Assembly (NCBI GenBank): GCA_965198065.1
Contig: CBDAON010000004.1
Span: forward strand, 2,784,001-2,848,000
Direction: 5' to 3'
DNA: 64,000 nucleotides
From: Longimicrobiales bacterium
GTDB lineage: Bacteria; Gemmatimonadota; Gemmatimonadetes; Longimicrobiales; Gaopeijiaceae
Position 1 is the stretch's first letter. Each line of letters starts with the position of its first letter. The notes beneath the pieces were generated by a model that made no database searches, was not told where the DNA came from, and saw only the letters and a list, made by a program, of their open reading frames with translations. A program made the position numbers and the translations under genes. Positions 18,082-60,915 of this stretch are shown piece by piece.

Positions 18082-19516
18082 GAGTGAGTCCCATCTTTAG
18101 TTGAAATTGAAGCGGCCTCCAACCTCAGGTAACGTGGGTGTGCGACCACACCACGGGATCACAAGAGAGGAAGGAGGGCCACCGATGGGAAGGATGCCAA
18201 GGCTCGTCGAGCGGGGGCAAGAAGGACCGGCGGCTCGGGGAACCGAGGGAGGTGAGTTGGGAGGAGATCGAGGCGCTGGAGCTGGACCCTCGGGTGGAGC
18301 TGATCCGGCAGCTGATTCCGCTGGGACTGGCGGAGGTGGGCCGGATGCTCGAGGAGGAAGTGGAGCAACTGGCGGGGCAACGTCACGCCAGGAAGACCGA
18401 GGACGATCGACATTGCCGGCATGGGCATAACCCAGGGTCGGTGCGGTTGGGCGGCCAGCGGCATCCGGTGCGAGTACCGCGGGTGCGAGGCCCGGCCGGA
18501 GAGTCGAGGCTGGCGGCGTATGAGCAGCTGCATGGCTCGCCCGGCGAGATGGACGAGGGGCTGTTTCGGAAGGTGCTGCTCGGGATCTCGTGCCGGGACT
18601 ACGAGGCAGCGGTCGAGGCGGTGCCTGGAGCCATCGGGCTGTCGAAGTCGACGGTCTCGCGGGAGTTCAAGAAGGCCACGGCCGCGAAGCTGAAGGAGTT
18701 TCAGGAGCGGGACCTCTCGGGTTACGACGTGGGGTGGCACTCGTCCTGGACGGCAAGAGCTTTGCCGAGGACGAGATGGTCGTCGCGCTCGGGGTGACGA
18801 CCAAGGGGGACAAGGTCTTCCTCGGGTTCGTCCAGACCGACACGGAGAACGCCGTGGTGATCCGATCCTTCCTTCGGAGTCTGAAGGACCGAGGTCTCGA
18901 CCTGTCGGCCGGAGCGCTCGTGGTGATCGATGGAGCCCGCGGTCTCCGGAGCGGCGTCCTGGCGGTCTTCAAGGGACAGGTGCTCATCCAGCGGTGCCAG
19001 TGGCACAAGCGGAAGAACGTGATCTCGTATCTGCCGAGAGCGGAGCAGAAGGGCTGGCGCCAGCGTCTGCAGCGCGCCTACCAGCGGCCCACGTACGAAG
19101 AGGCCGTCAAGGACCTCAAGGCCCTGCGCCAGGAGCTCGCGGGGGTGAACCAGTCCGCGGCGGCCAGTCTCGATGAGGGGTTCGAGGAGACCCTCACCCT
19201 CCACCGGTTGGGAGTCTTCCCCCTGGTCGGCCAGTCGCTCAAGACCACCAACGTGCTCGAGTCCGTGAACGCCCTGGCCGAGCAGAGGTGCGGACGCGTG
19301 GACCACTGGAAGAACTCGAGCCAGAAGCACCGATGGCTCGCGACCACGCTCCTGGAGATCTAGTCACGGCTCCGGAGGTTGCTCGGGTACCGACACCTCC
19401 CGCTCCTCAGGGCCGCGATCCAGAAGGACCTCGGGATCACCCTTCCCGAGAGCCGTTCACATGCTGTCGCCTGAGACGGAGGCCGCTCCAGTTTCAACTA
19501 ACTTTGGGATTGACTC
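18082..19516 (+). mobile_element. IS256-family element, copy 1 (transposase frameshifted plus internal TAG; no TSD)
   Basis: ~39-bp imperfect IRs GAGTGAGTCCC.../...GGGATTGACTC. QRCQWHK and TTNVLESVN motifs. Confidence 0.9.
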
Positions 19517-24278: not shown

Positions 24279-26444
24279 CTACCAGCGGCCAAAGGAGAAC
24301 CACGAGATCGCATAACCAGAGAAGCCGAAGACCGGAGCCTGGAAGACCTGTCCGGCCACATCGTGCACGGCGCTCACCGATGTCCAGAGCGTCTCGGGCG
24401 CGTCCTGATGCCATAGGCCGAGCAACTCCTGCTCAACGTAGGCGTCCGAACCGTCGACCGCGCCGTCCCCGGTGAGGTCGGAATCGGCGCCCGCGTACCA
24501 CAGCTCGAGCCGGGCCGGGGTGTTGCGGTCGAAGGTGAGACCGCTGGGAGCAAACCGCACCTGGATCGTCTCCGCATCCACGGTGAGGGTGATCAGCACT
24601 GGGTCACCGGGGGCCACCGCCGTGCCATCGGGAAGCCGGTCCAGTGCTTCCGCGGGCACCGATAGTCTCAGGAACGGCGCTAGCGCTCCCCCCTCCGCAT
24701 ACTCGATGTCCAGGTGGCGGTCCTCGCCCTTGACGGGAGTGAGTCCCATCTTTAGTTGAAATTGAAGCGGCCTCCAACCTCAGGTAACGTGGGTGTGCGA
24801 CCACACCACGGGATCACAAGAGAGGAAGGAGGGCCACCGATGGGAAGGATGCCAAGGCTCGTCGAGCGGGGGCAAGAAGGACCGGCGGCTCGGGGAACCG
24901 AGGGAGGTGAGTTGGGAGGAGATCGAGGCGCTGGAGCTGGACCCTCGGGTGGAGCTGATCCGGCAGCTGATTCCGCTGGGACTGGCGGAGGTGGGCCGGA
25001 TGCTCGAGGAGGAAGTGGAGCAACTGGCGGGGCAACGTCACGCCAGGAAGACCGAGGACGATCGACATTGCCGGCATGGGCATAACCCAGGGTCGGTGCG
25101 GTTGGGCGGCCAGCGGCATCCGGTGCGAGTACCGCGGGTGCGAGGCCCGGCCGGAGAGTCGAGGCTGGCGGCGTATGAGCAGCTGCATGGCTCGCCCGGC
25201 GAGATGGACGAGGGGCTGTTTCGGAAGGTGCTGCTCGGGATCTCGTGCCGGGACTACGAGGCAGCGGTCGAGGCGGTGCCTGGAGCCATCGGGCTGTCGA
25301 AGTCGACGGTCTCGCGGGAGTTCAAGAAGGCCACGGCCGCGAAGCTGAAGGAGTTTCAGGAGCGGGACCTCTCGGGTTACGACGTGGGGTGGCACTCGTC
25401 CTGGACGGCAAGAGCTTTGCCGAGGACGAGATGGTCGTCGCGCTCGGGGTGACGACCAAGGGGGACAAGGTCTTCCTCGGGTTCGTCCAGACCGACACGG
25501 AGAACGCCGTGGTGATCCGATCCTTCCTTCGGAGTCTGAAGGACCGAGGTCTCGACCTGTCGGCCGGAGCGCTCGTGGTGATCGATGGAGCCCGCGGTCT
25601 CCGGAGCGGCGTCCTGGCGGTCTTCAAGGGACAGGTGCTCATCCAGCGGTGCCAGTGGCACAAGCGGAAGAACGTGATCTCGTATCTGCCGAGAGCGGAG
25701 CAGAAGGGCTGGCGCCAGCGTCTGCAGCGCGCCTACCAGCGGCCCACGTACGAAGAGGCCGTCAAGGACCTCAAGGCCCTGCGCCAGGAGCTCGCGGGGG
25801 TGAACCAGTCCGCGGCGGCCAGTCTCGATGAGGGGTTCGAGGAGACCCTCACCCTCCACCGGTTGGGAGTCTTCCCCCTGGTCGGCCAGTCGCTCAAGAC
25901 CACCAACGTGCTCGAGTCCGTGAACGCCCTGGCCGAGCAGAGGTGCGGACGCGTGGACCACTGGAAGAACTCGAGCCAGAAGCACCGATGGCTCGCGACC
26001 ACGCTCCTGGAGATCTAGTCACGGCTCCGGAGGTTGCTCGGGTACCGACACCTCCCGCTCCTCAGGGCCGCGATCCAGAAGGACCTCGGGATCACCCTTC
26101 CCGAGAGCCGTTCACATGCTGTCGCCTGAGACGGAGGCCGCTCCAGTTTCAACTAACTTTGGGATTGACTCCTTGACGGCCCAGAAGCTCACCGTGAAGT
26201 CCCCGGCGTCCTCCTCGGCCGCGCTCCGGAGCGCCCGTGGTCCACCTGCCTCGACCCACTCGCTCGGGTGCGCAACGAAGAGGCGAGCCTGCTCCCTCTT
26301 CTCCCAGCGCAGCATGTTAAGCGCGCGCTCTGGGCCCGCCTGCACTTCCGTTTCGTCCCGCTCCGAAGATGGCCCGGTAGCGTCGGCACAACTGGCGACG
26401 GCCGCGGTCGCCGCCAGCACGAGAACCAGCAGCTGTCTAGACAT
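24279..26444 (-). pseudogene. Hypothetical lipoprotein interrupted by IS256 copy 2
   Basis: Lipobox-like AVASC. Removing the IS and one TSD restores FWAVK-GEDRHLDIEY in frame. Confidence 0.8.
24737..26171 (+). mobile_element. IS256-family element, copy 2, with 8-bp TSD CTTGACGG
   Basis: Same ORF translations as copy 1. TSD at 24729..24736 and 26172..26179. Confidence 0.93.
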
Positions 26445-42681: not shown

Positions 42682-42956
42682 ACGCCCAGCGCCAGCCGCT
42701 TGCCCGGACGCCGTAGGGCCAGCGCGGGACGTCAATACCACGGCACGACCGAACGGTTACACCTACCCAACCTCACTGAGCGCCATGTCACCCCCATTGG
42801 CGTCGGCTGTCGGGCGACTCCGCTTCAGCCGATGTCGAATGCAAATTGGCGAGCTGCCGAGGGGATGGTGAAGGAGCGAAGCGTGCCGGAGGGTGGATTG
42901 TCGATGGCCCCTGTCCTCTCTGATTGCGGACTACAATAGATGGTTAGTGTTTCAGA

Positions 42957-43184
42957 TCACTCCGCGTTGCCACGGCTCGCGGCGACCTGTTCTCGGATCC
43001 ACGCATCCACTTCGGACTCGATCCAGCCGACGGCGCGCGCGCCTAGCCGGATCGGTTGGGGAAAGCTCCCGTCGGCCACCCGCACGTAGATCGTGCTCCG
43101 CGCCAGCCCGGTGCGGGCCTGCACTCGAGGTAACCTCAGGACGCGCGCGGGCGCGTCCATGCCCTGTTCCATTGCTCTGGTCAT
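42957..43184 (-). CDS. alpA: AlpA-family regulator/excisionase
   Basis: Near-identical to 14920..15147. Confidence 0.9.
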   Translation of the reverse strand: MTRAMEQGMDAPARVLRLPRVQARTGLARSTIYVRVADGSFPQPIRLGARAVGWIESEVDAWIREQVAASRGNAE

Positions 43185-43820
43185 CGGTCTGCCTCCGTTC
43201 TGTTCGGTGAAGAATTCCGGGGCGCGTTGCCCCGGGGGAGGGAACAGGGGCCACATGGGCCTGGCGGCAGGCTTCGATGAACACGGGGACCTGGCAGGCC
43301 ATCGCCAGCCTCGGTGATCGGCCAGGACGGAGCTGACGCACCGGGTTGAGATAGCCCACCGCCTGCAGGTCGAACGTCGACGGCTTCAGGCCCGTGCGCT
43401 CGAGGGATGCATCCACTCGCGATTCGAAGTGCTTCGTCAGCGTCTCCATGGCAGTTGGGGTCGAGATCCGGCATGTGAGGACCCGCTCATGCACTGCGGC
43501 GCGTGGCCGAGCGCGACCGGATGCCGCCTCGGAGGGTGGTGCTAAGTGAGTCGAGGGCCGGCCGACGGATCGCGGCGAAGGGCTGCACCGTGCGGTGCAT
43601 TGACATCGATGTCGGCAGGGCGGCCAGTGCGGGCGGCCGCGACTAGAAGCTGACACCACAGGGGAGCCATGAGATGTTTCGACCGCAGGATCGAACCGAG
43701 CCTGCGGCCGGCCGCGCGACAAAGCCGCGCTGGCCCACCGCATGCGGGACGGCCATCGCCGCAAGTACGACGCTCGCAAGGACACCTGGCGCGCCGGGGA
43801 CACTACTCGTCCGCCGGCGC

Positions 43821-46800
43821 CTACCAGCCCACTGTGAGTCGGCCCACCAGGCTGTGGTCCGGCTTTTCCTGAAGCAGGCTCTCGCGGCGCTGGGCGTCGA
43901 GGCCGAACTGGAAGCTCATGGCGCCACCCTGCACGACAGCCAGGCTGTAGCCCAGCCGGTAGTCGCGCCCGTACTCGGAAGTCGTGACGCCGAACCTCGG
44001 GGTCCCCACCAGCCGACTCCCGACCGGCAGCGCGTAGCCGAGCTCGGCGTCGATGCGGTCGCCCGATCCCGGGCCTCCTGCCCCGAGCCCCTCCATCGTA
44101 TCGCGGCCCCAGAGTGCGTCGGCACCGCTCATCGCCTGCCCGCCCCACGAGGGCGCGAGCCGCGCCGTGAAGCCCAGCGGCGTCGATGGCGTCGGGTCGT
44201 AGCTGAACGACACCGACACGCCCCGTTCCCTGAACCCTTCGTCCTGATGCACGAGCAGCGTCCGCACCCGCACGTCGACCGACAGTCCGGTCAGCGGGTC
44301 CGCTGCGATCAGGCTTGCGGCGATGTCCGCGCCCGCGCCCGTCTCCGCGTCCCCGCCGTCCTGCCTGAGCCCGACCTCGAGGCTCGGCTGCAGCGCGATG
44401 CCGTGTCCGAAGACGTAGCCCCTCGAGGCCTCGAGCGCTGTCCGCACACGCGTCACCACCGCTTCGGTCCCAGCCAGTCGGCCTGCCGGACCGTCCACGG
44501 CCTCGCTGCCCGTGCCCACCCACAGCGCGTCCGCCTTGAACGCCAGCCCGAACCCGCCGACACCGGCATCCACCAGATCGCCCCTCACGCCCCCGGCGAG
44601 CATCGACATCGAGAGCCCGCCCTCGAGAGCGACGGGAGCCGCGAGAGACGTTGGTAGAGACAGTGCCTCACCGGGTGTCAGGCTCAACGAGCCCCTCCCG
44701 TATCCGGTCACGCCCCAGAGCGTGACCCGCTCGCTCAGCTTGTATCCCACCCAGGGGTGGAGCCCCGTGACCGACGAGGCCACCTGGCCCACGTCGGCCT
44801 CCTGGTAGCCGCCCAGGCCTCGGCGGTGCGAGAGCATCAGCCCCGCCATCAGCGGCCCCTTCGCGTAGTCCGCCCCGAACATCGTCGTGCGGACCCCGCC
44901 GTCGAGCGACAGCTCGCCGTCCCGGCCGCTGAACCGCGACTCCATCCCGCGGCTCCAGAGCGAGACGCTCGCGCCCCCGCCCGTCTCGCGGTTCAACACG
45001 AACCCCGAGCCCATCAGCAGGTCGCCGCCTCCGAGACCCGTCCGCAGTAGCTCGGCGCCGCTCAGATCGGACTGGACGCCCGTCGTATCCCGAGCGCCCG
45101 CGCCCGCCGTGGACTGAAGCCGGGTCAGGAAGTTCCGGCCCATATCGCGCTCCATCCCACGCCTGAGCTCACGCCCCGCGAACCGGCCCCGGAAGCCCGA
45201 GGCTCTGGACGCCTCCAGCCGCTCCTCCACCTGCTCCATCACGTGGAGCGCCGTCGCCCGCCCGAACCGCGCCAACAGCGCCCGCGGCAGCGGATCGGTG
45301 TTCTCGATCGTCCCGGTCGCTTCCGCGTCAGCCAGCCGGCCCTCCGACGGATTCGAGAGCCGGAGCGTCATCGTCTCCTCGCCCTCGTCGTGCGAATCGT
45401 CGAGCACCGCGACCTCGACCGTCTGCGACGACTCGCCCGCCCGGAACGTCAGCGTCCCGTTCGCGGCCGTGTAGTCGTCGCTCGCGTGCGCACTGCCGTC
45501 CGCCGTCTGGTAGTCCACCGTCACCTGCCCGGCAGCCGCGCGGCTCAAGGTGACCGCGAACTCGAGCACGGCGCCCGCGCCTTCCTCCACCCGCGCATCC
45601 GCCACGGAGATGCCCACTGGGCCGGCCACCGTCGCCGAGGGCGTCTCCGACAGCGCCCGGCCGTCCTTCGTGCAGACCGCCGCCGGGGTGCCGCAGGCCG
45701 CCCCGGCCGCGAGCGTCACCGTCACGTCCGACGGCGAATCCGGCTCGACCGTCAACTGCCACAGGTCCCGGCGCCGGTTCACCCGACTGGCCTTCGTCGC
45801 CCGGCCCCCGGCCACCGCCACCACGTCCTCCCGCAACCGCCGGCCGTTCATCCAGCTGAGCGGCTCGCTGAACGCGATCCGCAGTGTGAACGCGCTCTCG
45901 CCGTCATGCGCCTCCGGCACGCCCACGAACGACGCCGTCAGGTCCGCCGAAACGGCCTCGGGGCCCGCCACCGTCGCCGTCGGCGTGTTGGCGAGCTGCC
46001 GCCGGTTGTCCCCCTTCGTGCAGATCGCACCCGAGACCCCGCACTCGCGCCCCGCCGGCAGCTCGATCGTCACGTCCCCGTCCGAATCCGGCTCGACCGT
46101 CATCTCGAACAGGTCGCGCCGGTCGTCCACCCGCCCTCCGCCCGTGACCCGCCCGCCCCTCACCGTGAACGCGTCCTCGCGGAGCGCCCGGAAGCTGATC
46201 CCGATGTCCTCGCTGAACGCCACCCGGAAGGTGAACGGCGTCTCCCCGTCGTGCTCCGCCGGCATGCCCTGGAACGCAGCCGTCAGGTCCGGCCGTGCCG
46301 TCGTCTCGGTGTTCCGAATCGTGCCCACCGCCTCGTTGTCGTTTTTCGCGAAGTACGCGTTCCAGGCGTTGGTCAGCACCAGCGTGAACGTCTCCCCGTC
46401 GTCCTCCACCGCATCGTCCGTGATCGGCACCGACACCGTCTTCTCGTCCTCGCGCGGCGCGAAGACCAGCGTGCCGCTCGTCGACGTGTAGTCGGACGCC
46501 GCCGTCGCCGTGCCATCCCGCGTCCGGTACTGGACCGTCACCTTCCGCGACGTCTTCGGGTCGAGCCTCACCACGAAGTCCACCGTATTGTCCTCGCCCT
46601 CGGTCGCCTCCGCGTCCGCCACCGACAGCGACACCGGTCTGTCGTCGTCGTCCTCGACCACGAGGACATCGGGAAGGATGAGGTCGTTGTACGCCGGGTC
46701 CCTGCTGTGCACCCGGCTCAGGAAGACGCGCTCGCCGTTCACCGCGTCGTCGTCGTGCTCCGCCAGGATTACCATCCAGATCGGCGTCTTCCACTCGTCC

Positions 46801-49800
46801 GGCGCGATCGGCAGCACCGTGTGGTTCGTCAAGACGTGCAGGTCCTCGTCGCCGTCGGACTGGATCCCACGCAGGTGGACCGTGTGCGTCGGCCGGGTGT
46901 CCAGCTTCAGCCCGTAGCGCCCCTTGGTGCCCTCGCGGATCACCAGCCGGTGCCTCCCGTCCGCATGCATCTCGAGCGGATCGCCGTCGGTATCGATGAT
47001 CGTGACGCTACCCGGCTTCGCCGTCGTCCCGCCGTCGACCTTGTGGTCGGACTGCGGACCGAGCGCCCCGTGGGAGAGGTCCGCGTCGAGGCCCGTCGCG
47101 GCGCTGCGGATGCGCGCGCCGCCGAGCCGTATCGCGTTCGCGCCGACCGCCACGCCGTCGTCGTCGCGGTCCTCGGCCTTCACCGTGTAGCCGAAATGCA
47201 CCTTGACCCCTTCCGGCCGGGGCCGAGGCGACGGACGGCCCTTTGCCCAGTCGGTGTCCGTCAGCCCGTAGAACCGGGCATCACGCGCCGTCCCGCCCAG
47301 GTCGAACGCCAGCGTCGGCTGCGGGTCGCCCTTCACCCGCACCTTCTCGGAGAAGGCCAGCGTGAACACGATCGTCTCGCCAAACCCGTACACGTCCTCA
47401 TGCCCGTCCCGTTGCGGCCAGCTCCTCACCTCCAGCGATGAGATCGTGGGGGCCTCATTGGCGTTCGCGTCCGTCCTGCCACTGCCCGAGTCCGACCAGG
47501 CGCCCCTGCCCTCGTCGTTGGTCGCCCGCACCTGCACCTGGTAGGAGGTGTTCTCCGACAGGCCCGTGACCGTCGCCGCGGTGGCCGTCCCGTTGTGGCC
47601 CCCGTCGCTCCAGCTCCCGCTCGTGCCCGCCCGGTACTGGACGTCGTAGTCGGTGATCGCCGGGCCGCCGTTGGCCGGCGCCGACCAGTTCACCGTCAGG
47701 CTCGACACCGACGCCGGCGCCACCGTCGGCGCGTCCGGCTTGCCCGGCGCCTCGCCGCCCACATCCGTCACCGTCACCGTGATCGTCTGTGTCGCCGTCT
47801 TCTCCCGCTCGCCCGCGCCGCTCGTCGCCGTCACCTCCACCACGTAGGTGTTGTTGCTGCCCTGGTCCTGGGCGTCCTCGAAGTTCGGCGCCGCGTCGAA
47901 CGTCAGCGCCCCCGACGTCGCCCCGATCGAGAACAACGCCTGGTCCGCCCCGCCGGTGATCTCGTAGCCCGTGACGTCGTCGTCCGAATCGGAGTCCGTC
48001 GCCAGCACCGTGCCCGCCGTCGTCTGGTTCTCCGCCGCGTCGAACGCCGGAGGAGCTGAACGTCGGCGCCGCGTTCGCGGCCGCGGCGGTCGCGCCGGTT
48101 CCCGAGTCCGACCACGAGCCGGTCCCCTCGTCGTTCGTGGCCCGCACCTGCACCTGGTAGGAGGTGTTCTCCGAGAGGCCCGTCAGCGTCGCCGTGGTGG
48201 CGGTGCCGGTGTGGCCCCCGTCGCTCCAGCTCCCGCTCGTGCCCGCCCGGTACTGGACGTCGTAGTCGGTGATCGCCGGGCCGCCGTTGGCCGGCGCCGA
48301 CCAGTTCACCGTCAGGCTCGACACCGACGCCGGCGCCACCGTCGGCGCGTCCGGCTTGCCCGGCGCCTCGCCGCCCACATCCGTCACCGTCACCGTGATC
48401 GTCTGTGTCGCCGTCTTCACCCGCTCGCCCGTGCCGCTGGTCGCCTGTACCTCGACCACGTAGTCGTTGCCGGTGTCGGAGTCCTGGGCGTCCTCGAAGT
48501 TCGGCGCCGCGTCGAACGTCAGCGCCCCGGAGGTCGCACCGATCGAGAAAACGCCTGGTCCGCGCCGCCGGTGATCGCGTAGCCCGTCACGTCGTCGCCC
48601 GCGTCGCTGTCCGTCGCCAGCACCGTGCCGGCCGTCGTCTGGTTCTCCGCCGCGCGAACGTCGCCGGTGAGCTGAACGTCGGCGCCGCGTTCGCGGCCGC
48701 GGCGGTCGCGCCGGTTCCCGAGTCCGACCACGTCGCCGGTGCCCTCGTCGTTCGTCGCCCGCACCTGCACCTGGTAGGAGGTGTTCTCCGAAAGGCCCGT
48801 GAGCGTCGCCGTGGTGGCGGTGCCGGTGTGGCCCCCGTCGCTCCAGTCCCCGCTCGTGCCCGCCCGGTACTGGACGTCGTAGTCGGTGATCGCCGGGCCG
48901 CCGTTGGCCGGCGCCGACCAGTTCACCGTCAGGCTCGACACCGACGCCGGCGCCACGTCCGGCGCGTCCGGCTTGCCCGGCGCCTCGCCGCCCACATCCG
49001 TCACCGTCACCGTGATCGTCTGCGTCGCCGTCTTCTCCCGCTCGCCCGCGCCGCTGGTCGCCTGCACCTCGACCACGTAGTCGTTGCCGGTGTCGGAGTC
49101 CTGGGCGTCCTCGAAGTTCGGCGCCGCGTCGAACGTCAGCGCCCCCGACGTCGCCCCGATCGAGAAGAGGTTCTGGTCCGCTCCGCCGGTGATCGCGTAG
49201 CCGGTGACGTCGTCGTCCGAATCGGAGTCCGTCGCCAGCACCGTGCCGGCCGTCGTCTGGTTCTCCGCCGCGTCGAACGTCGCCGATGAACTGAACGCCG
49301 GCGCCGCGTTGGCGTCCGTCGCGCCGCTGCCCGAGTCCGACCAGTCGCCGGTGCCCTCGTCGTTCGTCGCCCGCACCTGCACCTGGTAGGAGGTGTTCTC
49401 CGACAGGCCCGTGAGCGTCGCCGTGGTGGCGGTGCCGGTGTGGCCCCCGTCGCTCCAGCTCCCGCTCGTGCCCGCCCGGTACTGGACGTCGTAGTCGGTG
49501 ATCGCCGGGCCGCCGTTGGCCGGCGCCGACCAGTTCACCGTCAGGCTCGACACCGACGCCGGCGCCACGTCCGGCGCGTCCGGCTTGCCCGGCGCCTCGC
49601 CGCCCACATCCGTCACCGTCACCGTGATCGTCTGCGTCGCCGTCTTCACCCGCTCGCCCGCGCCGCTGGTCGCCTGCACGTCGACCACGTAGTCGTTGCC
49701 GGTGTCGGAGTCCTGGGCGTCCTCGAAGTTCGGCGCCGTCGTTGAACGTCAGCGCCCCCGACGTCGCACCGATCGAGAAGAGGTTCTGGTCCGCTCCGCC

Positions 49801-52350
49801 GGTGATCGCGTAGCCCGTGACGTCGTCGCCCGCGTCGCCGTCGGTCGCCAGCACCGTGCCGGCCGCCGTCTGGTTCTCCGCCGCGTCGAACGTCGCCGAA
49901 GAGCTGAACGCCGGCGCCGCGTTGGCGTCCGTCGCGCCGCTGCCCGAGTCCGACCACGCCGGTGCCCTCGTCGTTGGTGGCCCGCACCTGCACCTGGTAG
50001 GAGGTGTTCTCCGACAGGCCCGTCAGCGTCGCCGTGGTGGCGGTGCCGGTGTGGCCCCCGTCGCTCCAGCTCCCGCTCGTGCCCGCCCGGTACTGGACGT
50101 CGTAGTCGGTGATCGCCGGGCCGCCGTTGGCCGGCGCCGACCAGTTCACCGTCAGGCTCGACACCGACGCCGGCGCCACGTCCGGCGCGTCCGGCTTGCC
50201 CGGCGCCTCGCCAGCCACGTCGGTGACCGTCACCGTGATCGTCTGCGTCGCCGTCTTCTCCCGCTCGCCCGCGCCGCTGGTCGCCTGCACGTCGACCACG
50301 TAGTCGTTGCCGGTGTCGGAGTCCTGGGCGTCCTCGAAGTTCGGCGCCGCGTCGAACGTCAGCGCCCCGGAGGTCGCACCGATCGAGAAGAGGTTCTGGT
50401 CCGCTCCCGCCGGTGATCGCGTAGCCCGTGACGTCGTCGCCCGCGTCGCTGTCGGTCGCCAGCACCGTGCCGGCCGCCGTCTGGTTCTCCGCCGCGTCGA
50501 ACGTCGCCGATGAGCTGAACGTCGGCGCCGCGTTGGCGTCCGTCGCGCCGCTGCCCGAGTCCGACCAGTCGCCCGTGCCCTCGTCGTTCGTCGCCCGCAC
50601 CTGCACCTGGTAGGAGGTGTTCTCCGACAGGCCCGTGAGCGTCGCCGTGGTGGCGGTGCCGGTGTGGCCCCCGTCGCTCCAGTCCCCGCTCGTGCCCGCC
50701 CGGTACTGGACGTCGTAGTCGGTGATCGCCGGGCCGCCGTTGGCCGGCGCCGACCAGTTCACCGTCAGGCTCGACACCGACGCCGGCGCCACGTCCGGCG
50801 CGTCCGGCTTGCCCGGCGCCTCGCCGCCCACATCCGTCACCGTCACCGTGATCGTCTGCGTCGCCGTCTTCTCCCGCTCGCCCGCGCCGCTGGTCGCCTG
50901 CACGTCGACCACGTAGTCGTTGCCGGTGTCGGAGTCCTGGGCGTCCTCGAAGTTCGGCGCCGCGTCGAACGTCAGCGCCCCCGACGTCGCACCGATCGAG
51001 AAGAGGTTCTGGTCCGCTCCGCCGGTGATCGCGTAGCCCGTGACGTCGTCGTCCGAATCGGAGTCCGTCGCCAGCACCGTGCCGGCCGCCGTCTGGTTCT
51101 CCGCCGCGTCGAACGTCGCCGATGAGCTGAACGCCGGCGCCGCGTTGGCGTCCGTCGCGCCGCTGCCCGAGTCCGACCAGTCGCCGGTGCCCTCGTCGTT
51201 GGTCGCCCGCACCTGCACCTGGTAGGACGTGTTCTCCGACAGACTCGACAGCGTCGCCGTGGTGGCGGTGCCGGTGTGGCCCCCGTCGCTCCAGCTCCCG
51301 CTCGTGCCCGCCCGGTACTGGACGTCGTAGTCGGTGATCGCCGGGCCGCCGTTGGCCGGCGCCGACCAGTTCACCGTCAGGCTCGTCACCGACGCCGGCG
51401 CCACGTCCGGCGCGTCCGGCTTGCCCGGCGCCTCGCCAGCCACGTCGGTCACCGTCACCGTGATCGTCTGCGTCGCCGTCTTCTCCCGCTCGCCCGCGCC
51501 GCTGGTCGCCTGCACCGTCGACCACGTAGTCGTTGCCGGTGTCGGAGTCTGGGCGTCCTCGAAGTTCGGCGCCGCGTCGAACGTCAGCGCCCCGGAGGTC
51601 GCACCGATCGAGAAGAGGTTCTGGTCCGCTCCCGCCGGTGATCGCGTAGCCCGTGACGTCGTCGTCCGAATCGGAGTCCGTCGCCAGCACCGTGCCGGCC
51701 GTCGTCTGGTTCTCCGCCGCGTCGAACGTCGCCGAAGAGCTGAACGCCGGCGCCGCGTTCGCGGCGGGCGTCACGATGCTCCCCGTCGGACACACCTGCG
51801 TCGCCGTGCGCAGGCACACCGTCGCCGTGCTCCCGACCGGAAACTCGGTCTCTAGATCGTCCAGTGCGTCCGGAGCGGTCCAAATCAAGCTCTGGCCGAT
51901 GCTGATCGCAGTGATCAGATCCGAGAATGCGAGCGCGTGCCCGCCGAACTCCAGCGTCAGGGGTTCGGCTGTCGAAAGTCCGCCCGCGACGACGAATCTG
52001 ACGACATTATTCGTCGCCACGTCGATGGCAAGGACCCTATAGGGCAAGGACCCGTAATCGAAATCGTCGTCGTCGAGCGCCCCGATCGCGGGCGTGTCGG
52101 TCGCGTCGTAGCCGTGCCCCACCCGAGTTTCACCCGCCGTCATGGTCGCGGACCAGACCGGGTCGGTCGTCTGGGCTGCGGCGGGGAGGGCGAGCGCGCC
52201 GGAGAGCACGAGCAGCGCCGCGGCGAACAGCGGGCGGAGCGGACAAGCCCGCGCGCGCGGCGCAGTTATGGCGGTGGGCGCTCCGCACTCCGCTTTAACG
52301 ACCGCATCCCGTCGCACGCCGCACCCGGCTATCCCCCTTCGACCGTTCAC
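43821..52350 (-). CDS. Giant autotransporter-like adhesin (~2840 aa if joined): 7x cadherin-like+FN3, Ig-like, 2x Calx-beta, beta-barrel; several frameshifts
   Basis: Signal peptide (ALPAAA-Q), FN3 WSAP..YDVQYR..YQVQVRATN, cadherin-like APNFEDAQD, Calx-beta DYTSTSGTLVF, barrel ending LTVGW. Confidence 0.85.
47461..51762 (-). repeat. Seven tandem ~612-bp coding repeats
   Basis: Unit marker near 48059, 48676, 49294, 49908, 50518, 51131 and 51743. Confidence 0.9.
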
Positions 52351-52454
52351 TTGTCTCTTTCTCGAAAAAAGGCAGCCGCGCGAGGATGTCGGGCGCCCCG
52401 CTGATTCGGTTGCTTACCGAACTTCCACGTGGACCTTCCCCACTCCTCGTGCTC

Positions 52455-52488
52455 GATAGCTCTCGATAACTGTAGTTATCGAGAGTAA
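52455..52488 (+). repeat. 34-bp candidate recombination site, left
   Basis: GATAGCTCTCGATAA-CTGTAG-TTATCGAGAGTAA, the exact reverse complement of 53559..53592. Confidence 0.9.
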
Positions 52489-52524
52489 ACTTTTTGGCTG
52501 TATGTCATTGTGCAGGGGGCACTT

Positions 52525-53511
52525 ATGCAGATTTCAGCCCCAGGAGGTGTGTCCGACCGTCCCGACCCGGCCACTCGAAAGTCACAAAACGGCGAGCGCC
52601 TGACCGCCTACCTGGAGGACGCCCGCGGCGCCCTGAGCGGCCATACCGTGCGAGCGGTGCGAGCGGACCTGGAACGGTTCGCGGCGTGGTGCGCCGAGCG
52701 GGGGCGTTCTCCGCTGCCCGCGCGCGCGGCCACGGTGGTGGCCTACGTCGAGGCGATGGCGAGCGAGCGAGCGCCGGCCACCGTGCGGCGCTACGTCTCG
52801 AGCGTCGCCACCGTGCACAAGGCGGCCGGGGAGCGGAGCCCGCTCGAGCACGTGACCGTGAGGCGGGCGCTGAAGCGGATGCACCGGCAGAGGGGGTGCC
52901 GGCAGAGGCAGGTGCGGGGGCTGACCTGGGCGCTCCGCCGGCGCCTGATGGAGGCCGCGGGCGACCGGGTGATCGACGTCAGGAACCGCGCGATCCTGGC
53001 CGTGGCCTACGACGCCATGCTCCGGCGCTCCGAGCTGGTCGCGCTGCAAGTCGTTGATGTGACGATAGAAAGGGGCGGCTCGGCCTCGCTCCTCGTGCGC
53101 CGCGCGAAGACCGATCCGGAGGGCGGCGGCGCGATGCTGTACCTGCACCGAGACAGCGTGAGGCTGCTCTCGGAGTGGCTGAGCGCGAGCGGGATCAGTG
53201 GCGGGCCGCTCTTCCGTTCGATGCGCAAGGACGGCACGCTGGGCGGCCGGCTGCATGAGAGCCAGGTGCCGCGCATCTACAAGGCGATGGCCGAACGGGC
53301 CGGGCTCCCGGAGCAGATCGTGCGGCGGCTCTCCGGGCACAGCCCCCGCGTGGGCGCGGCTCAGGACATGATCGCCAAGGGGATCGGGATCCCGGCGATC
53401 ATGCAGGCCGGGCGCTGGAAGAACGCCCAGATGGTGCAGCGCTACGGCGAGCGGCTGCTGGCCAAGCGCAACGGCGCCGCACAGCTGGCACGGCTTCAGA
53501 AACGCAGATGA
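52525..53511 (+). CDS. Cre-like tyrosine recombinase
   Basis: SAM-like N-domain. Catalytic R (LRRSEL), K (RAKTD), HxxR (HSPRVG), W (AGRW) and Y (MVQRYG) all present. Confidence 0.9.
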   Translation: MQISAPGGVSDRPDPATRKSQNGERLTAYLEDARGALSGHTVRAVRADLERFAAWCAERGRSPLPARAATVVAYVEAMASERAPATVRRYVSSVATVHKAAGERSPLEHVTVRRALKRMHRQRGCRQRQVRGLTWALRRRLMEAAGDRVIDVRNRAILAVAYDAMLRRSELVALQVVDVTIERGGSASLLVRRAKTDPEGGGAMLYLHRDSVRLLSEWLSASGISGGPLFRSMRKDGTLGGRLHESQVPRIYKAMAERAGLPEQIVRRLSGHSPRVGAAQDMIAKGIGIPAIMQAGRWKNAQMVQRYGERLLAKRNGAAQLARLQKRR

Positions 53512-53558
53512 GCCCCGAAGAACCCGGGGGCCTCTCTGGTCACAAACTTTGCCGCGGG

Positions 53559-53592
53559 TTACTCTCGATAACTACAGTTATCGAGAGCTATC
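53559..53592 (-). repeat. 34-bp candidate recombination site, right (inverted)
   Basis: TTACTCTCGATAA-CTACAG-TTATCGAGAGCTATC. Confidence 0.9.
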
Positions 53593-53772
53593 CGGAAAGC
53601 TACGCGCTATTTTGTGAGTGAGTTGTGACTTGTCGGGCGAGCGTCGTGGCCCTTTAGTGACTTCACGCGCGAAGAGCGCTATCCTCCACCCCCCGCGGTC
53701 CGGCGGAAGGCGGCCGGGCCGATCGTCCGGAGCCTCGTCCGCTCCGCCTCACCCTTCGGCGGGAGTGGAGCA

Positions 53773-56106
53773 TTGAACGATCGAGACCCTACGGGGCCCT
53801 CCGACGACCGCATCTCGCGGCTGAGCGCGGCCATCCTCCGCATCAGCCAGAGCCTGGACGTGGCCACCGTGCTGGAGGAGGTCGTCGAGAGTGCCCGCGC
53901 GCTCACCGGCGCCCGCTCGGGCGTGATCACGACGATCGACGAGCAGGGAGAGGTCCAGGACTTCGTCACATCCGGCCTTTCTCCCGAAGAGTACCGGAAG
54001 ATGGTGGAGTGGTCCGACGGGCGGCGACTCTTCGAACACCTTCGCGACCAGGCGAAGCCGCTCCGGGTGGCGGACCTCCCCGGCTACCTCGACTCGCTCG
54101 GCCTCTCGCCGACGCCCTGGACGTCGAGGTCGCTGCATGGGACCCCGATGCACCACCTGGGCGAGCATCTCGGCAACTTCTTTCTCAGCGACAAGGAGGA
54201 CGGCGAGGCGTTCACGGGCGAGGACGAGGAGATCCTGGTGCTTTTCGCCTCGCAGGCGGCGACGGCGATCGCGAACGCGCGCACGTACCGCGATCTCGAG
54301 CGGGCGCGGGCCGACCTCGAGGCGCTCATCGAGACCTCGCCGGTCGGCGTGGCGGTGTTCGATGCCGGCACCGGCCATCCGGTCTCGTTCAACCGCGAGG
54401 CGCGGCGCATCGTCGAGGGGCTCCGCACGCCGGGCCGTCCACCGGAGCAGCTGCTCGAGGTGATCACGTGCCGGCACTCCGACGGGCGGGAGGTCTCCCT
54501 AGAGGAGTTGCCCCTGGCCCGGCAGCTCGGGAGCGCCACGACGATGCGGGCCGAGGAGGTCGAGCTGTCGGTGCCCGACGGGCGGAGCGTCCGGATGCTC
54601 ATCAACGTCACGCCGATCCGCTCCGAGGAGGGAGGGGTCGTGTCGGTCGTCGTCACCATGCAGGACCTGGCGCCGCTCGACGAGCTCGAGCGGCAGCGGG
54701 CGGAGTTCCTCGGGATGGTGAGCCACGAGCTCCGCGCCCCGCTGACCTCGATCAAGGGTTCGACGGCGACCGTGCTCGGCGCCGTGCCGGTCCCGCCCCA
54801 GGCCGAGCTGCTCCAGTTCTTCCGCATCATCGACGGGCAGGCCGACCACATGAGGGGCCTCATCGCGAACCTTCTGGACGCGGGAAGCATCGAGGCGGGC
54901 ACGCTCACCGTCGCGCCCGAGCCCGCGAACGTCGCCGCGCTGGTGGACCGGGCCCGCAGCACGTTCCTGAGCGGCGGAGGCCGGCACGCCGTCCTCATCG
55001 ACCTGCCGCCGGACCTGCCGCGTGCGATGGCCGACCCGGAGCGCATCGTGCAGGTGATGAACAACCTCTTCTCGAACGCGGCCCGCCACGCTCCCGCGTC
55101 CTCCCCGATCCGGGTCGAGGCGACGTGCGAGGGCGGCTACATCGCGCTCTCGGTCTCGGACGAGGGCCGGGGGATCCCGCCCGACCGGCTCCCGCACCTC
55201 TTCCACAAGCGCGCCGGCCTCGCCGGAGGCACCGGGCTCGGCCTCGCCATCTGCAAGGGCCTCGTCGAGGCGCACGGCGGCCGTATCCGCGCCGAGAGCG
55301 GGGGGACGGACCAGGGCGCGCGCTTCACCTTCACGATCCCGGTGGCCGGGCCGGCCACCCCCGAGGCAGCCCCACCCGAGGAGGCTCCGGCCAGCGACCG
55401 GCCACGCCCGCCCGGGGACGGGCGGGAGAAGACTCCCGTCCTGGTCGTGGACGACGACCCGCAGACGCTACGCTACGTGCGCAACGTCCTCTCCGATGCG
55501 GGCTACGCCCCGCTGGTGACGGGCGATCCGGACGGGCTCCCCGGCGTCATCCGCGCCGAGAAGCCCCGCCTCGTCCTCCTCGACCTCATGCTCCCCGGAA
55601 CGGACGGGATCGAGCTGATGAAGCGGGTCCCCGAACTCGCCGATCTCCCGGTCATCTTCATCTCCGGCTACGGCCGCGACGAGACGATCGCCAAGGCGCT
55701 CGAGAGCGGCGCCGCCGACTACATCGTCAAGCCGTTCTCGCCGACCGAGCTCGTCGCGCGGGTCCAGGCGGCGCTACGTGCCCGGGCCGTGCCCGAGACG
55801 TTCGTGCACGGGGAGCTCGCCATCGACTACGGCCGCCGACACGTGAGCGTGGCCGGCCGCGAGGTCCCGCTCACGGCCACCGAGTTCGACTTGCTGCGCA
55901 TCCTCTCGCTCAACGGGGGACGCGTGGTCACTACGGAGGCGCTCCTCCGACAGGTGTGGGGGCGCCGGGGCTCGGACGACACCGATCGCGTGCGCACCGT
56001 CGTCAAGAAGCTCCGCCACAAGCTCGGCGACGACGCCGCCAATCCCACCTACATCTTCAACGAGCACGGCGTCGGCTACCGCATCGCGACCCCGGGTGGG
56101 GCTTAG
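53773..56106 (+). CDS. Soluble hybrid GAF-PAS-HisKA-HATPase-REC-OmpR wHTH protein
   Basis: SHELRAPL, GTGLGL, VVDDD, LLDLMLP, YIVKPF, LTATEFDLL and GVGYR motifs. Confidence 0.9.
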   Translation: MNDRDPTGPSDDRISRLSAAILRISQSLDVATVLEEVVESARALTGARSGVITTIDEQGEVQDFVTSGLSPEEYRKMVEWSDGRRLFEHLRDQAKPLRVADLPGYLDSLGLSPTPWTSRSLHGTPMHHLGEHLGNFFLSDKEDGEAFTGEDEEILVLFASQAATAIANARTYRDLERARADLEALIETSPVGVAVFDAGTGHPVSFNREARRIVEGLRTPGRPPEQLLEVITCRHSDGREVSLEELPLARQLGSATTMRAEEVELSVPDGRSVRMLINVTPIRSEEGGVVSVVVTMQDLAPLDELERQRAEFLGMVSHELRAPLTSIKGSTATVLGAVPVPPQAELLQFFRIIDGQADHMRGLIANLLDAGSIEAGTLTVAPEPANVAALVDRARSTFLSGGGRHAVLIDLPPDLPRAMADPERIVQVMNNLFSNAARHAPASSPIRVEATCEGGYIALSVSDEGRGIPPDRLPHLFHKRAGLAGGTGLGLAICKGLVEAHGGRIRAESGGTDQGARFTFTIPVAGPATPEAAPPEEAPASDRPRPPGDGREKTPVLVVDDDPQTLRYVRNVLSDAGYAPLVTGDPDGLPGVIRAEKPRLVLLDLMLPGTDGIELMKRVPELADLPVIFISGYGRDETIAKALESGAADYIVKPFSPTELVARVQAALRARAVPETFVHGELAIDYGRRHVSVAGREVPLTATEFDLLRILSLNGGRVVTTEALLRQVWGRRGSDDTDRVRTVVKKLRHKLGDDAANPTYIFNEHGVGYRIATPGGA

Positions 56107-56441: not shown

Positions 56442-57329
56442 CTAGAGCTCGAGCGCGGCCGGATCCCGGTCGGTCGGCCCTCGCAGGGAGGAGCGATCTC
56501 CGCCGTCGCCCACGCCGAGTGAGCGGAGCAGGCGCGCCGCGGCCGGTCCGTTGGCGTGCATCCGGAACCCGGCGGCCACCTTGGCACGTATGGAGCGAGC
56601 CCGGTAGTTGCCCGATGCGACCTCGATGTTGACGCGTCCGGTGCGCCCCTCGGAGTCGGTGTACTCGATCTGCGCATCCGGGTAGAGCACGCGGCCTTGG
56701 GCATCGATCGGCAAGCCGAGCTCCTCGGCCACGCGGTGCCGCTCGGCGTCCGCGGCCCGCCGGCCGTCTTTCGCCCGCGCGGACTCGCTCTTGCGTGCTA
56801 CGGCGCTCTTGAACTCGCCGTCGAGACGCACACGGCGGACGGTGGCCCCCTGCTCGATCAGGCGTTGGTGCTCCTGGCGGCAGGCCCGATAGATGGCGGT
56901 GTCGTGCGCGGCTTCGGCGGGCCGGGTACGTGCGAACCCGATCTCCTGGCCGGGATCGATTCCCCGCTCGGCGGCCAGCTTCCGGGCCTCGGCCACGCCT
57001 TTCCGCGTGAGGGTCAGCACCTTGAACGGGTTGCCCTTGGGTCCCTTGGCCGTGGACTCCTGGGCGAGCCCTTCGCGGATCCAGGCGTTCACGGCCCGCC
57101 GGGTGGTGTAGGGATGGCCGCCGAAGTGAGCCTCGGCGAGATCGCGGTACGAGACGGCGCCGTAGATGCCGATGTCGGCGAGCGCCCCACGGCACCGTTC
57201 TCTGAAGGAGGTGGACCCGCGGTCCCGGCTCGCGTCGTATTCTCGGCGATGGCCGTCCCGCATGCGGTAGATAGCGCGGCTTGGTGGCGCGGCGGGACGC
57301 GGGTCCGATGCGATCGTGCGGTCGAACAT
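56442..57329 (-). CDS. wHTH plus PD-(D/E)xK-like protein (replication-relaxation-like)
   Basis: GAGGAG RBS, HDTAIY and YPDAQIEY..VNIEV motifs. Family call is inference. Confidence 0.55.
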   Translation of the reverse strand: MFDRTIASDPRPAAPPSRAIYRMRDGHRREYDASRDRGSTSFRERCRGALADIGIYGAVSYRDLAEAHFGGHPYTTRRAVNAWIREGLAQESTAKGPKGNPFKVLTLTRKGVAEARKLAAERGIDPGQEIGFARTRPAEAAHDTAIYRACRQEHQRLIEQGATVRRVRLDGEFKSAVARKSESARAKDGRRAADAERHRVAEELGLPIDAQGRVLYPDAQIEYTDSEGRTGRVNIEVASGNYRARSIRAKVAAGFRMHANGPAAARLLRSLGVGDGGDRSSLRGPTDRDPAALEL

Positions 57330-57351
57330 CTCCTCGGCTCCTTCCTTGGCC

Positions 57352-58387
57352 TCAGCGGCCCGGGCCGAAGCTCCGGGTCGGGACCGGCAGCGGGAGCTCC
57401 GGCCGGGATGGGCGTGCTGCCTCGGGCGGGAGCGCGGGTACGCGGCCACCGGGTGCCGCTCGCGCTCGGCCTCACGCTCGCGGCTCCGGGCCAGCACGAA
57501 GTCGGAGATCTTCTGTGCGTCGGCCGCGGCGCGGCGGATCTCCCGGGGGTCCTCCTCGAGGGCGGCGATCCACCCCTCGACGTAAGCGGCTCCCCGGCTC
57601 GGGTCGTGGCCGACGCCCACGCGCTCGCCCGTCATCATTGCGCTGATCTCCGCGCGGAGCTCCTCCTTCGCATAGGCCGGCGAACCGAACCCTTCGCTCG
57701 ATCCCTTGGATGAGCGTCTCGCGGTTCATCCGCTCCGGATGGCCGGTGCTGTGCCCCAGCTCGTGGAGCGCGGTCTGGTAGTAGTGGTTGGCCGAGGGGA
57801 ACTGCACGCGCTCGGGGAGCACGATCTCGTCGCGGTTCAGGTTGTAGAACGCGCGGTCGCCCGCCACGTGACGGACGGGGACCCCGCTGTCCTCGAGCAC
57901 CTCTCGGCCTGCTGGTGCGCCTTCCAGAGCGGCTCGGCCGTGGGTGTGGGCCGGGCCGGCAGCCCGTCGGCCTGCTCGGCGTTGAACACGGTGTACTGGC
58001 GGACGACGGGCGCTTGGCAGGCGCTCGTGGCGGTAGACGCGCTTGCCTTCGTTGTCCCTCTTGGGCCGTCCGCGCTCGTCGTTGACGGCGATCTTCCGGT
58101 GGTCCTGGAACGAGAGGATGCGAGTGCCCTGCTCGCCCTTCCGCACCTGTCCGTCCCGGGCTTGGATCTGGCGGTAGGTGCCCCAGCGCACGTCGCCGTA
58201 GCCGCGCTCCTGCTGCCACGGCGGCGAGATGCAGGCTGTTCCCGCCCCTGTAGGAGCGTCCGGTATCGACGTTCGCGGGGAGCACGCGCTCGCCCGGCCC
58301 CCAGGGCTTCTGCCACGGCGCGGTGCCCTGGCGGATCTGCTCGATGATCCCCTCGGCGAACTGGCGGTGATATTCGTCGTGTTTCAT
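57352..58387 (-). pseudogene. ardC: ArdC-like antirestriction ssDNA-binding/zincin protein, multiple frameshifts
   Basis: GTAPWQKPW, YTVFNAEQ, ALHELGHSTGH and YAKEELRAE motifs across frames. Confidence 0.85.
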
Positions 58388-58587
58388 CGCTCTTCCTCCT
58401 CGGGGCCGTGCGGATCCTCCCGGCGTCGCGGATCTCGTCCTCGGTGCCCACGTCCTCGGGGAAGAGGCCGTACTCTTCGGCCAGCGAGGCCGGCACCTCG
58501 AGGGCCTCGCCTCCGTCGCGCGCGAGCTCGCGGTCGAAGTCGTCGAGCGTCTCGACGCGAACGATCTTCTCGTCGCTTTCCATGGCC

Positions 58588-59571
58588 TCACTCCTTTTCT
58601 GTTTGTTCTTCATCGTCCTTCCTCCATATCGTCTCCGTGAGCCAGCGATTGGCAGCCGAGTCGTAGCTCCGGACCCCGATCGCCTCCTCGACGAACCGTC
58701 GGCCCCCTCGCCGGGTCATGTGGACGACGAGATGGATGCCGTCGACCACGCCCCTGCAGGTGACCTCCCAGGGGAGCGCCCCTCCGGCCTGCATGGCGCA
58801 GCTGGCCAGGCGCGAGAGCGCGGAGCGGGCGTTGTTGGCGTGCACGGTGGTGAGCGATCCGCCGTGGCCGGTGTTGAGCGCCTGCAGCAGATCGGCGGCC
58901 TCGCCGCCCCTGACCTCGCCGACGACGATGTGGTCGGGCCGGTGGCGGAGCGCGTGGCGGACCAGGTCGCGGATCGACACGGGCGCCTCGGAGCCCACCG
59001 CCCCGGCCTCGAAGCGCAGGCAGTTGGTCCGGTCGATCCGGAGCTCGAGCGTGTCCTCGATGGCGACGATCCGCTCCTCCTCTGGGAGCAGCTCGATCAG
59101 GGCGTTCAGGAGCGTGGTCTTGCCCGAGCCGGTGCCGCCCGAGACCAGGATGTTGCGCCGGGAATGGAGGGCGTCGCGGGCGGCCCGGAACACCGTCTCG
59201 GGGAGGGCCCCCTGGCCGACGAGGTCCTCGGCCGAGAACGCGCGGCCCCCGAACCGGCGGATGGTCATGGCCACGTGGGGGCTCGCGGGCGGCGTGCAGA
59301 TGGCCACGCGGGAGCCGTCGTCGAGCCGCGCGTCTAGGACGGGCCGTGTGGCCGGATCGAGCCCGAGCGGCCTGGCGATGTGGATCGCCGCCCGATGGAG
59401 CGCGGCGGCGGTGAGCGCCGGTGCTTCGATGGGCTCTAGCTCCCCGCCGCGCTCGACCCAGACGTTGCCGGGGCCGTTGATCATCAGCTCGGAGACCTCC
59501 GGATCTTCGAGCACGGCCTCGAGGCCCGGCAGAAACGGTTTCAGGTGCCCGATGCCCGTGGCCCGCTTCAT
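58588..59571 (-). CDS. VirB11/CpaF-family secretion ATPase
   Basis: GGTGSGKTT, IEDTLEL, RHRPDHIVVGEVRG and NTGHGGSLTTVHAN motifs. Confidence 0.92.
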   Translation of the reverse strand: MKRATGIGHLKPFLPGLEAVLEDPEVSELMINGPGNVWVERGGELEPIEAPALTAAALHRAAIHIARPLGLDPATRPVLDARLDDGSRVAICTPPASPHVAMTIRRFGGRAFSAEDLVGQGALPETVFRAARDALHSRRNILVSGGTGSGKTTLLNALIELLPEEERIVAIEDTLELRIDRTNCLRFEAGAVGSEAPVSIRDLVRHALRHRPDHIVVGEVRGGEAADLLQALNTGHGGSLTTVHANNARSALSRLASCAMQAGGALPWEVTCRGVVDGIHLVVHMTRRGGRRFVEEAIGVRSYDSAANRWLTETIWRKDDEEQTEKE

Positions 59572-60915
59572 AGCCGGCCCTCCTCGCGGAGCCGCCAGTA
59601 GCCCGTGCCCCTCGGCAGGTAGTGGGGTTTCAGGTAGACGCGCAGGGCCGGGAGCGACTTCGTGCCGTCGTAGGGCAGACAGATCGCCTGGTAGTTGGCC
59701 AACAGCGCGAACTCGCGCGGCGTGAACACGGGCTCCCTCTGCTGCCGGAACGACTTGCTCGCTCCGATCGTGCCCCGCCCGCCCCCGGCGCGTCCCGAGA
59801 GCAGAGAGAACTCCGGCCTGCCCGTGGTCTCGGTGAACGTGTAGGAGGGCTGCGTCTTCATGACGCTGCCGCACATCTCCGATGCGATCCTGGCCGAGGA
59901 CTCGTCGCTCAAGGACAGGAAGATCCGGGTGCGGAGCGTCTGGACCAGCGTGCGCCAGGCCTCCGTGCCCGACAGCACGGAGCGGAGCGAGGAGATCGAC
60001 TGCGTGGCGACGATCGGGATGCAGCGGCACTGCCGCGTCAGCGCGAACGCCTTCTCGTCGCCAGCGGGGTCGTCCTGGCCCACGGTGGCGAACGCCTGGT
60101 ACTCGTCGCAGATGAAGACTGCGGGCCGGAGGTAGCGTCCGGGCCGGCGGGCGGCCTCGGCGGGCCGCCGGAGGAGCGCCTGCATCCAGGCGTTCTTGAG
60201 CAGCACGCCGATGGCGCGGCCGAGCGCCGGGTTCGCGCCCGCGGGCATGTTGAGGGCGAGGACCTTGCCGCCCTCGATCAGCTCCGTGAGCGGCGGCAGC
60301 CGGCGACGGAGCCCCGGCATGGGCCGGACGGCCTCGGGGTCCTCGTCCGGCGCATCGTTACCTATATGTATAGATGGGGACTCATCCGATTCCGGAGGCG
60401 GCGGACAGAAGACTCCGGCCACGCCGGGCTGATCGAACAGCGACAGGAAGACCGAGATGCCCTCGACGATCGAGGTGCGGAGCTTGGCATCGAGCGCCAT
60501 CCAGTCGTTCAGGTACCAGCGCTCGATCGCCTCCACCTGGTCCCTGAGTTCGCTCCCTGCTCCGCTCTCGCCTTCCTCGGTCTCGAACGGGATCCTGAGC
60601 TCGGCGAGCCGATCCCGGAGGACCGGATCGAGCCGGCACGTCACCGTGTCCTCACCGGAGGTATATATCCAGACCCAGTCATTCAGCGCTTCCGGATGGC
60701 CGATCATGTCGTCGTGGGAGATGACGACGCGCGCCGGGCACGCCTCAGCCACCAGGTCCTGGGCCTCGCGGATTCTCTCGGCGAACAGTTCCGCGTCGAT
60801 CGTGCAGCGGTAGACATCCTGCAGCGTGACCCAGCCCCCCGGCAGGAGCCGGTGCAGTTCGACGATCCAGCGCACGAGATTCGTATAGGCTTGCTGCCAG
60901 AACGGCTCGTTCCTC
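59568..60915 (-). pseudogene. VirD4/TraD-like coupling protein, 5' part missing
   Basis: FICDEYQAF Walker B, IVATQSISSL and EPFWQQAY. No Walker A before the break at ~60920. Confidence 0.75.

Follow-up and report, generated by a model that had tools for sequence, protein, structure and literature searches.

What is the role of a recombinase gene that sits between two inverted copies of a lox-like site, with a giant surface-protein gene on one side and a sensor kinase gene on the other? This question is posed by a 1138-bp segment in the 64,000-nucleotide stretch of a Longimicrobiales bacterium genome that we analyzed (the window). We conclude that the segment probably inverts itself by means of its own Cre-type enzyme and that this inversion likely acts as a switch for the giant surface-protein gene beside it. 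The sites and genes involved are as follows.

52455..52488, plus strand: left lox-like site, on the adhesin side (13-8-13 frame at 52456-52489; 6-bp core at 52470-52475)
53559..53592, minus strand: right lox-like site, on the kinase side, an inverted copy of the left site (core at 53572-53577)
52525..53511, plus strand: Cre-type tyrosine recombinase of 328 aa, inside the putatively invertible segment (Pfam PF02899 and PF00589; Cre alignment)
53512..53531, plus strand: GC-rich hairpin-like stretch 3' of the recombinase stop, without a U-tract, seen in the sequence and not called a terminator
43821..52350, minus strand: giant Fn3/cadherin/Calx-beta surface protein (adhesin) gene, identified by Pfam and split by frameshifts in the assembly
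53773..56106, plus strand: hybrid sensor kinase-regulator of 777 aa, GAF-PAS-HisKA-HATPase-receiver-winged helix (Pfam)
56442..60875, minus strand: ArdC-like, VirB11/TrbB-like, and coupling-protein genes, a conjugative-element context (Pfam, NCBIfam)

The two 34-nt arms are 100% complementary inverted repeats separated by 1070 nt, and each holds a 26-nt dyad (52460-52485 and 53562-53587) composed of 12-nt arms around a 2-nt asymmetric center. The original prediction described an intact Cre-type recombinase bracketed by two exact 34-bp sites, 36 and 47 nt from the gene ends, in a unit lacking a target duplication. We verified the arms, domains, and catalytic residues, the distances agree with the gene and arm coordinates, and no target duplication is visible at the segment borders. 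As a refinement, asymmetry extends beyond the 2-nt center of the dyad to the outermost 2 to 3 bases of both sites. A palindromic 13-8-13 site with an asymmetric spacer thus lies less than 1 kb from a recombinase gene, the arrangement given among the criteria for Cre-type pairs in excerpts of PMC10250229. Allowing up to 6 mismatches, no third copy occurs in the 3.05-Mb genome, the two sites being the only ones, and 100 shuffles of the window yielded no match. A third site at the far end of the adhesin cassette was considered and rejected, as the genome contains none and the extra site in a related locus (L107) is a relic of a far-clade unit. A search of 52200-53900 against Rfam returned no match, and the window contains no tRNA.

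The enclosed gene begins at ATG 52525 or GTG 52510, ends at 53511, and encodes an N-terminal SAM-like domain followed by a catalytic integrase domain. The protein aligned with Cre chains over residues 34-316 (E value, 9e-30). Among its PDB matches, 17 of 18 were Cre or the Cre variant Tre, XerD was far weaker, and the protein scored under every XerC/XerD cut-off. Residues R167, K195, H272, R275, W298, and Y307 align with Cre R173, K201, H289, R292, W315, and Y324, and all six positions are invariant in 82/82 intact homologous open reading frames (ORFs). With its length, domain pair, and Cre homology, the protein falls among Cre-type enzymes (300 to 400 aa, SAM-like plus catalytic domain); as a tyrosine recombinase, it falls outside the Hin family of serine recombinases with a Fis-bound enhancer.

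As predicted, both neighbors point away from the segment: 105 bp separate the left site from the first possible adhesin start (52350), and ∼180 bp separate the right site from that of the kinase (53773). The 8.5-kb adhesin gene has several frameshifts in this assembly, for which sequencing error and decay are indistinguishable; a related gene at another locus (L065) is a single frame of at least 1611 aa. The window's gene contains about ten near-identical 610-bp Fn3-cadherin repeats, and by eye its C-terminal part, with a barrel-like stretch and a terminal Trp, suggests an autotransporter-type anchor. An AlpA-like small regulator, also recognized by eye, follows the adhesin in the window (42800-43800, frameshifted) and in L110 (5025-5525). 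In L110 we saw a P4-type integrase on the other side, and the module appears by eye to ride on integrative islands. Elsewhere in the window, identical ORF sets 6655 bp apart (18101-19363 and 24756-26018) are probably a repeated insertion sequence (IS). The best NCBIfam matches of the kinase were OmpR/PhoB-type regulators, every one under cut-off.

If the two sites work as a pair, related loci should keep both and their cores should change together, as the original prediction proposed to check. We analyzed 92 homologous units; a duplicate (L097) and ten homologs at ≤40% identity were dropped, and two places in genome G706 are absent from the set. Two full sites were present in 78 of the 92 units. 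Among the other 14, 8 were without one site in the examined DNA, 5 far-clade units have a decayed right site, and L068 fell narrowly below the filter. The 6- to 7-bp cores match as inverted copies in 76/78 two-site units and comprise 19 core types, compared with 10.2 matches on average, and never more than 22, for shuffled core pairings; these counts are inflated by related units, but rare cores nonetheless match within their own units. In the two nonmatching units (L070 and L072), a single core base differs, and no core match in direct orientation was found in any of the 78. This conservation and covariation, which is what the proposed check had looked for, indicates that the site pair is under selection. 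According to excerpts of PMC10250229, spacer orientation decides between inversion and excision by Cre-type enzymes, and the geometry of these inverted cores therefore permits inversion only.

We compared orientations among orthologous loci of different genomes and among copies within one genome, defining state A as the arrangement in the window (recombinase toward the kinase) and state B as the reverse (recombinase toward the adhesin or other cargo). Locus L082, in state B, shares its kinase flank with L016, in state A, at 98.6% identity over 1538 nt and its cargo flank at 92 to 98% over ∼3.9 kb, with both flanks reversed relative to the segment (96.6%) and the alignment blocks ending within the sites. 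The same reversed pattern, again with blocks ending in the sites, distinguishes L109 (B) from L091 (A). L014 (B) and L016 (A) are present in one genome, and we rejected the possibility that L014 is an alternative assembly of L016, given that its kinase side is closer to that of L082 (99.8%) than to that of L016 (98.6%). L110, classed as B by its cargo and a kinase remnant, has an intact recombinase with a SWM/Calx-beta gene behind it, and L107 and L108 were classed as B by the cargo flank only. On a tree of the 3' 330 nt of the gene (91 rows), the six B units require at least 5 changes of state. The distribution is very skewed, with 59/65 near-clade units in state A (L075, probably one locus with L076 on overlapping contig ends, was left out of this count) and no detected flip in any of the 26 far-clade units.

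The aligned loci indicate that inversion has occurred in nature, and the enclosed recombinase very probably performed it. Inverted sites with matching cores, both orientations, and crossovers in the sites are among the features of an invertible switch, and the family shows all three; the prediction that the enzyme flips its own gene and regenerates its sites gains support from covarying cores, reversed orthologs, and breakpoints within the sites. The recombinase is damaged in four of the six B units, being IS disrupted in L082, L107, and L108 and frameshifted near its start in L014; the start frameshift of L014 and L082 is common to L016, which is in state A. Large insertions, IS-like where viewed, occur in the recombinase or in the gap before the right site in L064, L082, L090, L107, and L108 and would lock the segment. 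In contigs of 6 public runs, no strand-changing joint was found among the joints listed, a result that is uninformative given the mixed strains and a 34-bp repeat longer than the 31-letter index words. Low-depth contig joints in two runs jump either between the left site and the gene interior (52485-52676) or across the right site, from the end of the gene to where the kinase begins (53506-53757), and these may be misalignments.

Evidence on what the switch would control comes from the genes beside it, which are highly variable on the cargo side, whereas the kinase side is constant. Of 69 cargo-side ORFs, 48 encode Fn3, cadherin, Calx-beta, SWM, LRR, Ig, CARDB, or LapA domains within the first 600 residues; 3 others are hexapeptide-repeat proteins, and 18 are without a match, some because the wrong frame was picked, as in the window. 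The hexapeptide-repeat cargo, which is not an adhesin, is found in L092, L096, and L098. Ribosome binding site-led cargo starts lie only 17 to 40 nt from the site in L015, L083, L091, L093, L094, L101, L102, L104, L106, and L109. This distance is too short for a full promoter, so cargo transcription should come across the site. Three candidate regulatory features lie around the right site.

53549..53578, plus strand: candidate outward promoter, weak, with a -35-like hexamer in the segment, an 18-nt gap, and a -10-like hexamer in the right core
53539..53543, minus strand: conserved box of the kinase promoter, here inverted and within the segment, a candidate regulator site 33 nt from the right core
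53614..53685, plus strand: kinase-side flank with four direct 5-bp boxes spaced 11, 21, and 11 bp, followed by a -10-like hexamer at 53680-53685 (alignment of 51 flanks)

A standard scan of 52250-53800 found no consensus sigma-70 promoter; the candidate outward promoter has 4/6 matches per hexamer, is below the scan threshold, and is not conserved in all units. Both sites place the same -10-like hexamer outward. A comparison of -35 hexamers between the two ends gives a weak signal: matches averaged 3.1 at the 3' end of the segment and 2.6 at the other (P = 0.03), near-identical copies drive the difference, and a subclade has the higher score at the opposite end. A better -35 at the recombinase 5' end was seen in 6 units.

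We consider it likely that the segment controls the adhesin. The enclosed Cre-type enzyme would flip the segment at the inverted lox-like sites without excising it. An outward promoter, or read-through out of the segment's 3' end, may feed the adhesin gene and turn it ON in the rare state B, and in the common state A, as in the window, the gene may be OFF. That B is the ON state is our best guess; given the damaged recombinase in most B units, B could also be decay. More speculatively still, the hybrid kinase might favor A, either by binding its boxes to the left and right of the right site or by driving the recombinase in state B.

An unlikely alternative is that the segment inverts but mainly controls the recombinase itself or the kinase, as an autoregulatory loop, with the adhesin ON in state A or independent of the switch. 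Such a loop would account for the dominance of state A, which is odd if adhesins are needed yet OFF in that state, and it fits the outward -10-like hexamers at both sites and the 6 units with a better -35 at the recombinase 5' end. However, the cargo starts abut the site, so their transcription should cross it and depend on orientation, and a conserved promoter-like flank belonging to the kinase lies beyond the segment. We take the box layout of this flank to resemble an OmpR/PhoB-type promoter, and the flank is likely an autoregulated kinase promoter of that type. The suggestion in the original prediction that the segment is a phase switch for the kinase has become less likely, as the conserved boxes and -10-like element of that gene lie outside the segment.

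Returning to the segment as a switch for the adhesin, the kinase may still be linked to its orientation. The inverted box keeps a spacing of exactly 33 nt to the core in 40/52 distinct units. An intact adjacent kinase is absent from 6/6 B units versus 18/57 scorable A units (2 A units were unscored), with a Fisher P of 0.002, or 0.014 when absence is counted by the four B lineages, although kin are not independent in either count. Action of the kinase in trans is possible, as genome G209 carries the B unit L082 together with an intact kinase at L081. Two accounts fit these data, one in which the kinase pushes the segment to A and one in which B persists only in decaying loci, and we propose only tentatively, at somewhat less than even confidence, that the kinase steers segment orientation.

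Copies of the module also exchange cargo. In one genome, the recombinases of L074 and L076 are 99.9% identical, but the loci diverge from approximately where the left site ends on its outer side. Among copies that are 96 to 99% identical, two leader types occur intermixed. Cargo genes are therefore being exchanged at the site or within it, by site-specific or homologous recombination, which these sequences do not distinguish. It is quite improbable that the sites serve mainly such exchange, with left-site recombination, or homologous recombination in the recombinase-kinase block, swapping the surface gene and inversion arising as a by-product. Several copies per genome with different cargo and the L074/L076 divergence point would be expected under this explanation, but homologous exchange would likewise stop where homology stops, and the second inverted site and matching core in nearly all two-site units, including those of single-copy genomes such as the window's own, would be left unexplained.

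Close relatives of the module were found in records bearing the titles Longimicrobiales, Palauibacter, Vicinamibacterales, Latescibacterota, and Acidobacteriota. At an E value of 1e-40, matches were found in 30/314 genomes of the window's family, in 10/301 genomes in the class of G412, and in 1/168 in the phylum of G413, and two sister families had none (0/71 and 0/73 genomes). An apparent gammaproteobacterial member (L025) was rejected, as it is so titled but appears to be the same contig as L097, which is placed in the window's family. Several genomes hold more than one unit; G283, for instance, has at least 7 matches. A third of the stretch's words were present in one run labelled sponge metagenome, and a scan of JGI metagenomes gave one usable locus. 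The ten homologs at 29 to 40% identity have no pair of family sites, with one site near L127, and the distant homologs L027 and L031 have a single upstream dyad. Conjugation genes lie within the examined DNA of 15/68 long loci.

A broader reading, which we regard as doubtful, is that the module is a horizontally shared, signal-reset memory switch of sponge-type symbionts, in which a sensor kinase-regulator made of one protein would set the direction of Cre/lox self-inversion, giant surface proteins would stay OFF until a cue is lost, and lox-site exchange between the several copies per genome would reshuffle which surface protein each switch controls. Least probable of all, the segment would belong to a conjugative element as its resolvase or as a minimal mobile unit (the mobile unit was raised in the original prediction), with the sites as its ends or dimer-resolution site: the conjugation genes next door and in other loci, the close copies in Acidobacteriota- and Latescibacterota-titled records, and the single dyads of L027 and L031 would suit it, but inverted sites are unable to excise a segment, as established for Cre-type enzymes (PMC10250229, in excerpt), target duplications and directly oriented sites were not found, the kinase-side flank is kept in all near-clade units scored (L107, L108, and L110 did not score), and the direct-repeat att ends and varied context on both sides that mark a mobile unit or integrative cassette are thus missing.

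We instead class the locus as a Hin-like inversion switch that is self-contained and uses a Cre/lox-type pair beside surface-protein genes, a recombinase-inside variant and not a member of the Hin family. Natural Cre-type enzymes are known mainly as resolvases and tools, and in Salmonella the hin gene lies inside the ∼1-kb invertible segment. The Flp/FRT system of the yeast 2-micron plasmid, a cofactor-free-type tyrosine recombinase, acts on inverted sites of its own DNA and serves plasmid amplification, and engineered single-invertase memory modules likewise have a recombinase acting on inverted sites of its own DNA; unlike both, the module here is natural and chromosomal or island-borne. Cre/loxP and the pairs SCre/SloxP, VCre/VloxP, Vika, Nigri, Panto, and the YR series have the same six catalytic residues and a 13-8-13 palindrome near the gene, and in the excerpts of PMC3082901 and PMC10250229 the sites are described in that position and not as a self-inverting unit. 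In contrast, two inverted sites flank the gene here and are kept across dozens of loci, in linkage with a sensor kinase and a gene for a surface protein. Compared by eye with SloxM1 (PMC3082901, in excerpt), the site here agrees at 17 of its central 18 bases; the predicted new recombinase/target pair remains a fair candidate, with a core that is nearly that of SCre/SloxP.

The Salmonella Hin/hixL-hixR switch resembles the module in its ∼1-kb segment, inverted sites, own recombinase, and position beside a surface-antigen gene, and its orientation can be biased by the response regulator STM0347 (PMC9368917, in excerpt). Hin, however, is a serine recombinase requiring Fis and an enhancer (PMC3798978, in excerpt), whereas the module pairs a tyrosine Cre-type enzyme with lox-like sites and its promoter is only a candidate. 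In the excerpted accounts of fimS/FimBE, the Clostridioides difficile cwpV and flg switches, and Bacteroides invertons, a tyrosine recombinase, inverted repeats, a surface-protein target, and skewed orientation recur as they do here. Unlike these tyrosine-invertase promoter switches, the module carries its recombinase inside the segment, so that the gene's own upstream context flips; excerpts of a gut inverton survey (PMC11892184) describe invertases as located near their invertons and, in general, not open to regulation by them. The literature searched, mostly titles and abstract starts, contained no account of this module, and the list of ∼500 candidate pairs in PMC10250229, seen in excerpt, could hold a relative. 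A self-contained expression switch that uses Cre/lox chemistry and is coupled to a sensor kinase would represent a new phase-variation design and would provide a testable mechanism for varying large Fn3/cadherin/LRR surface proteins in uncultured marine symbionts. The family also comprises dozens of recombinase/site pairs whose 19 natural core variants are paired in vivo, making them candidate orthogonal tools for genome engineering.

Some members depart from the common form. A paralog in the window's own genome (L005 in G000, C4:1743908-1744480) was set aside as a truncated 40% relative without sites, beside IS and mobilization-gene remnants. Five far-clade units in the class of G412 (L131, L132, L134, L139, and L144) have an intact left and a decayed right site, and in three of them an OmpR-type receiver-winged-helix match lies ∼1.6 kb downstream from where the recombinase begins. 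L022 to L024, L114, L115, and L117 have a 7-bp core at both sites and L116, of the same subgroup, a 6-bp core, which points to a possible alteration in cleavage spacing.
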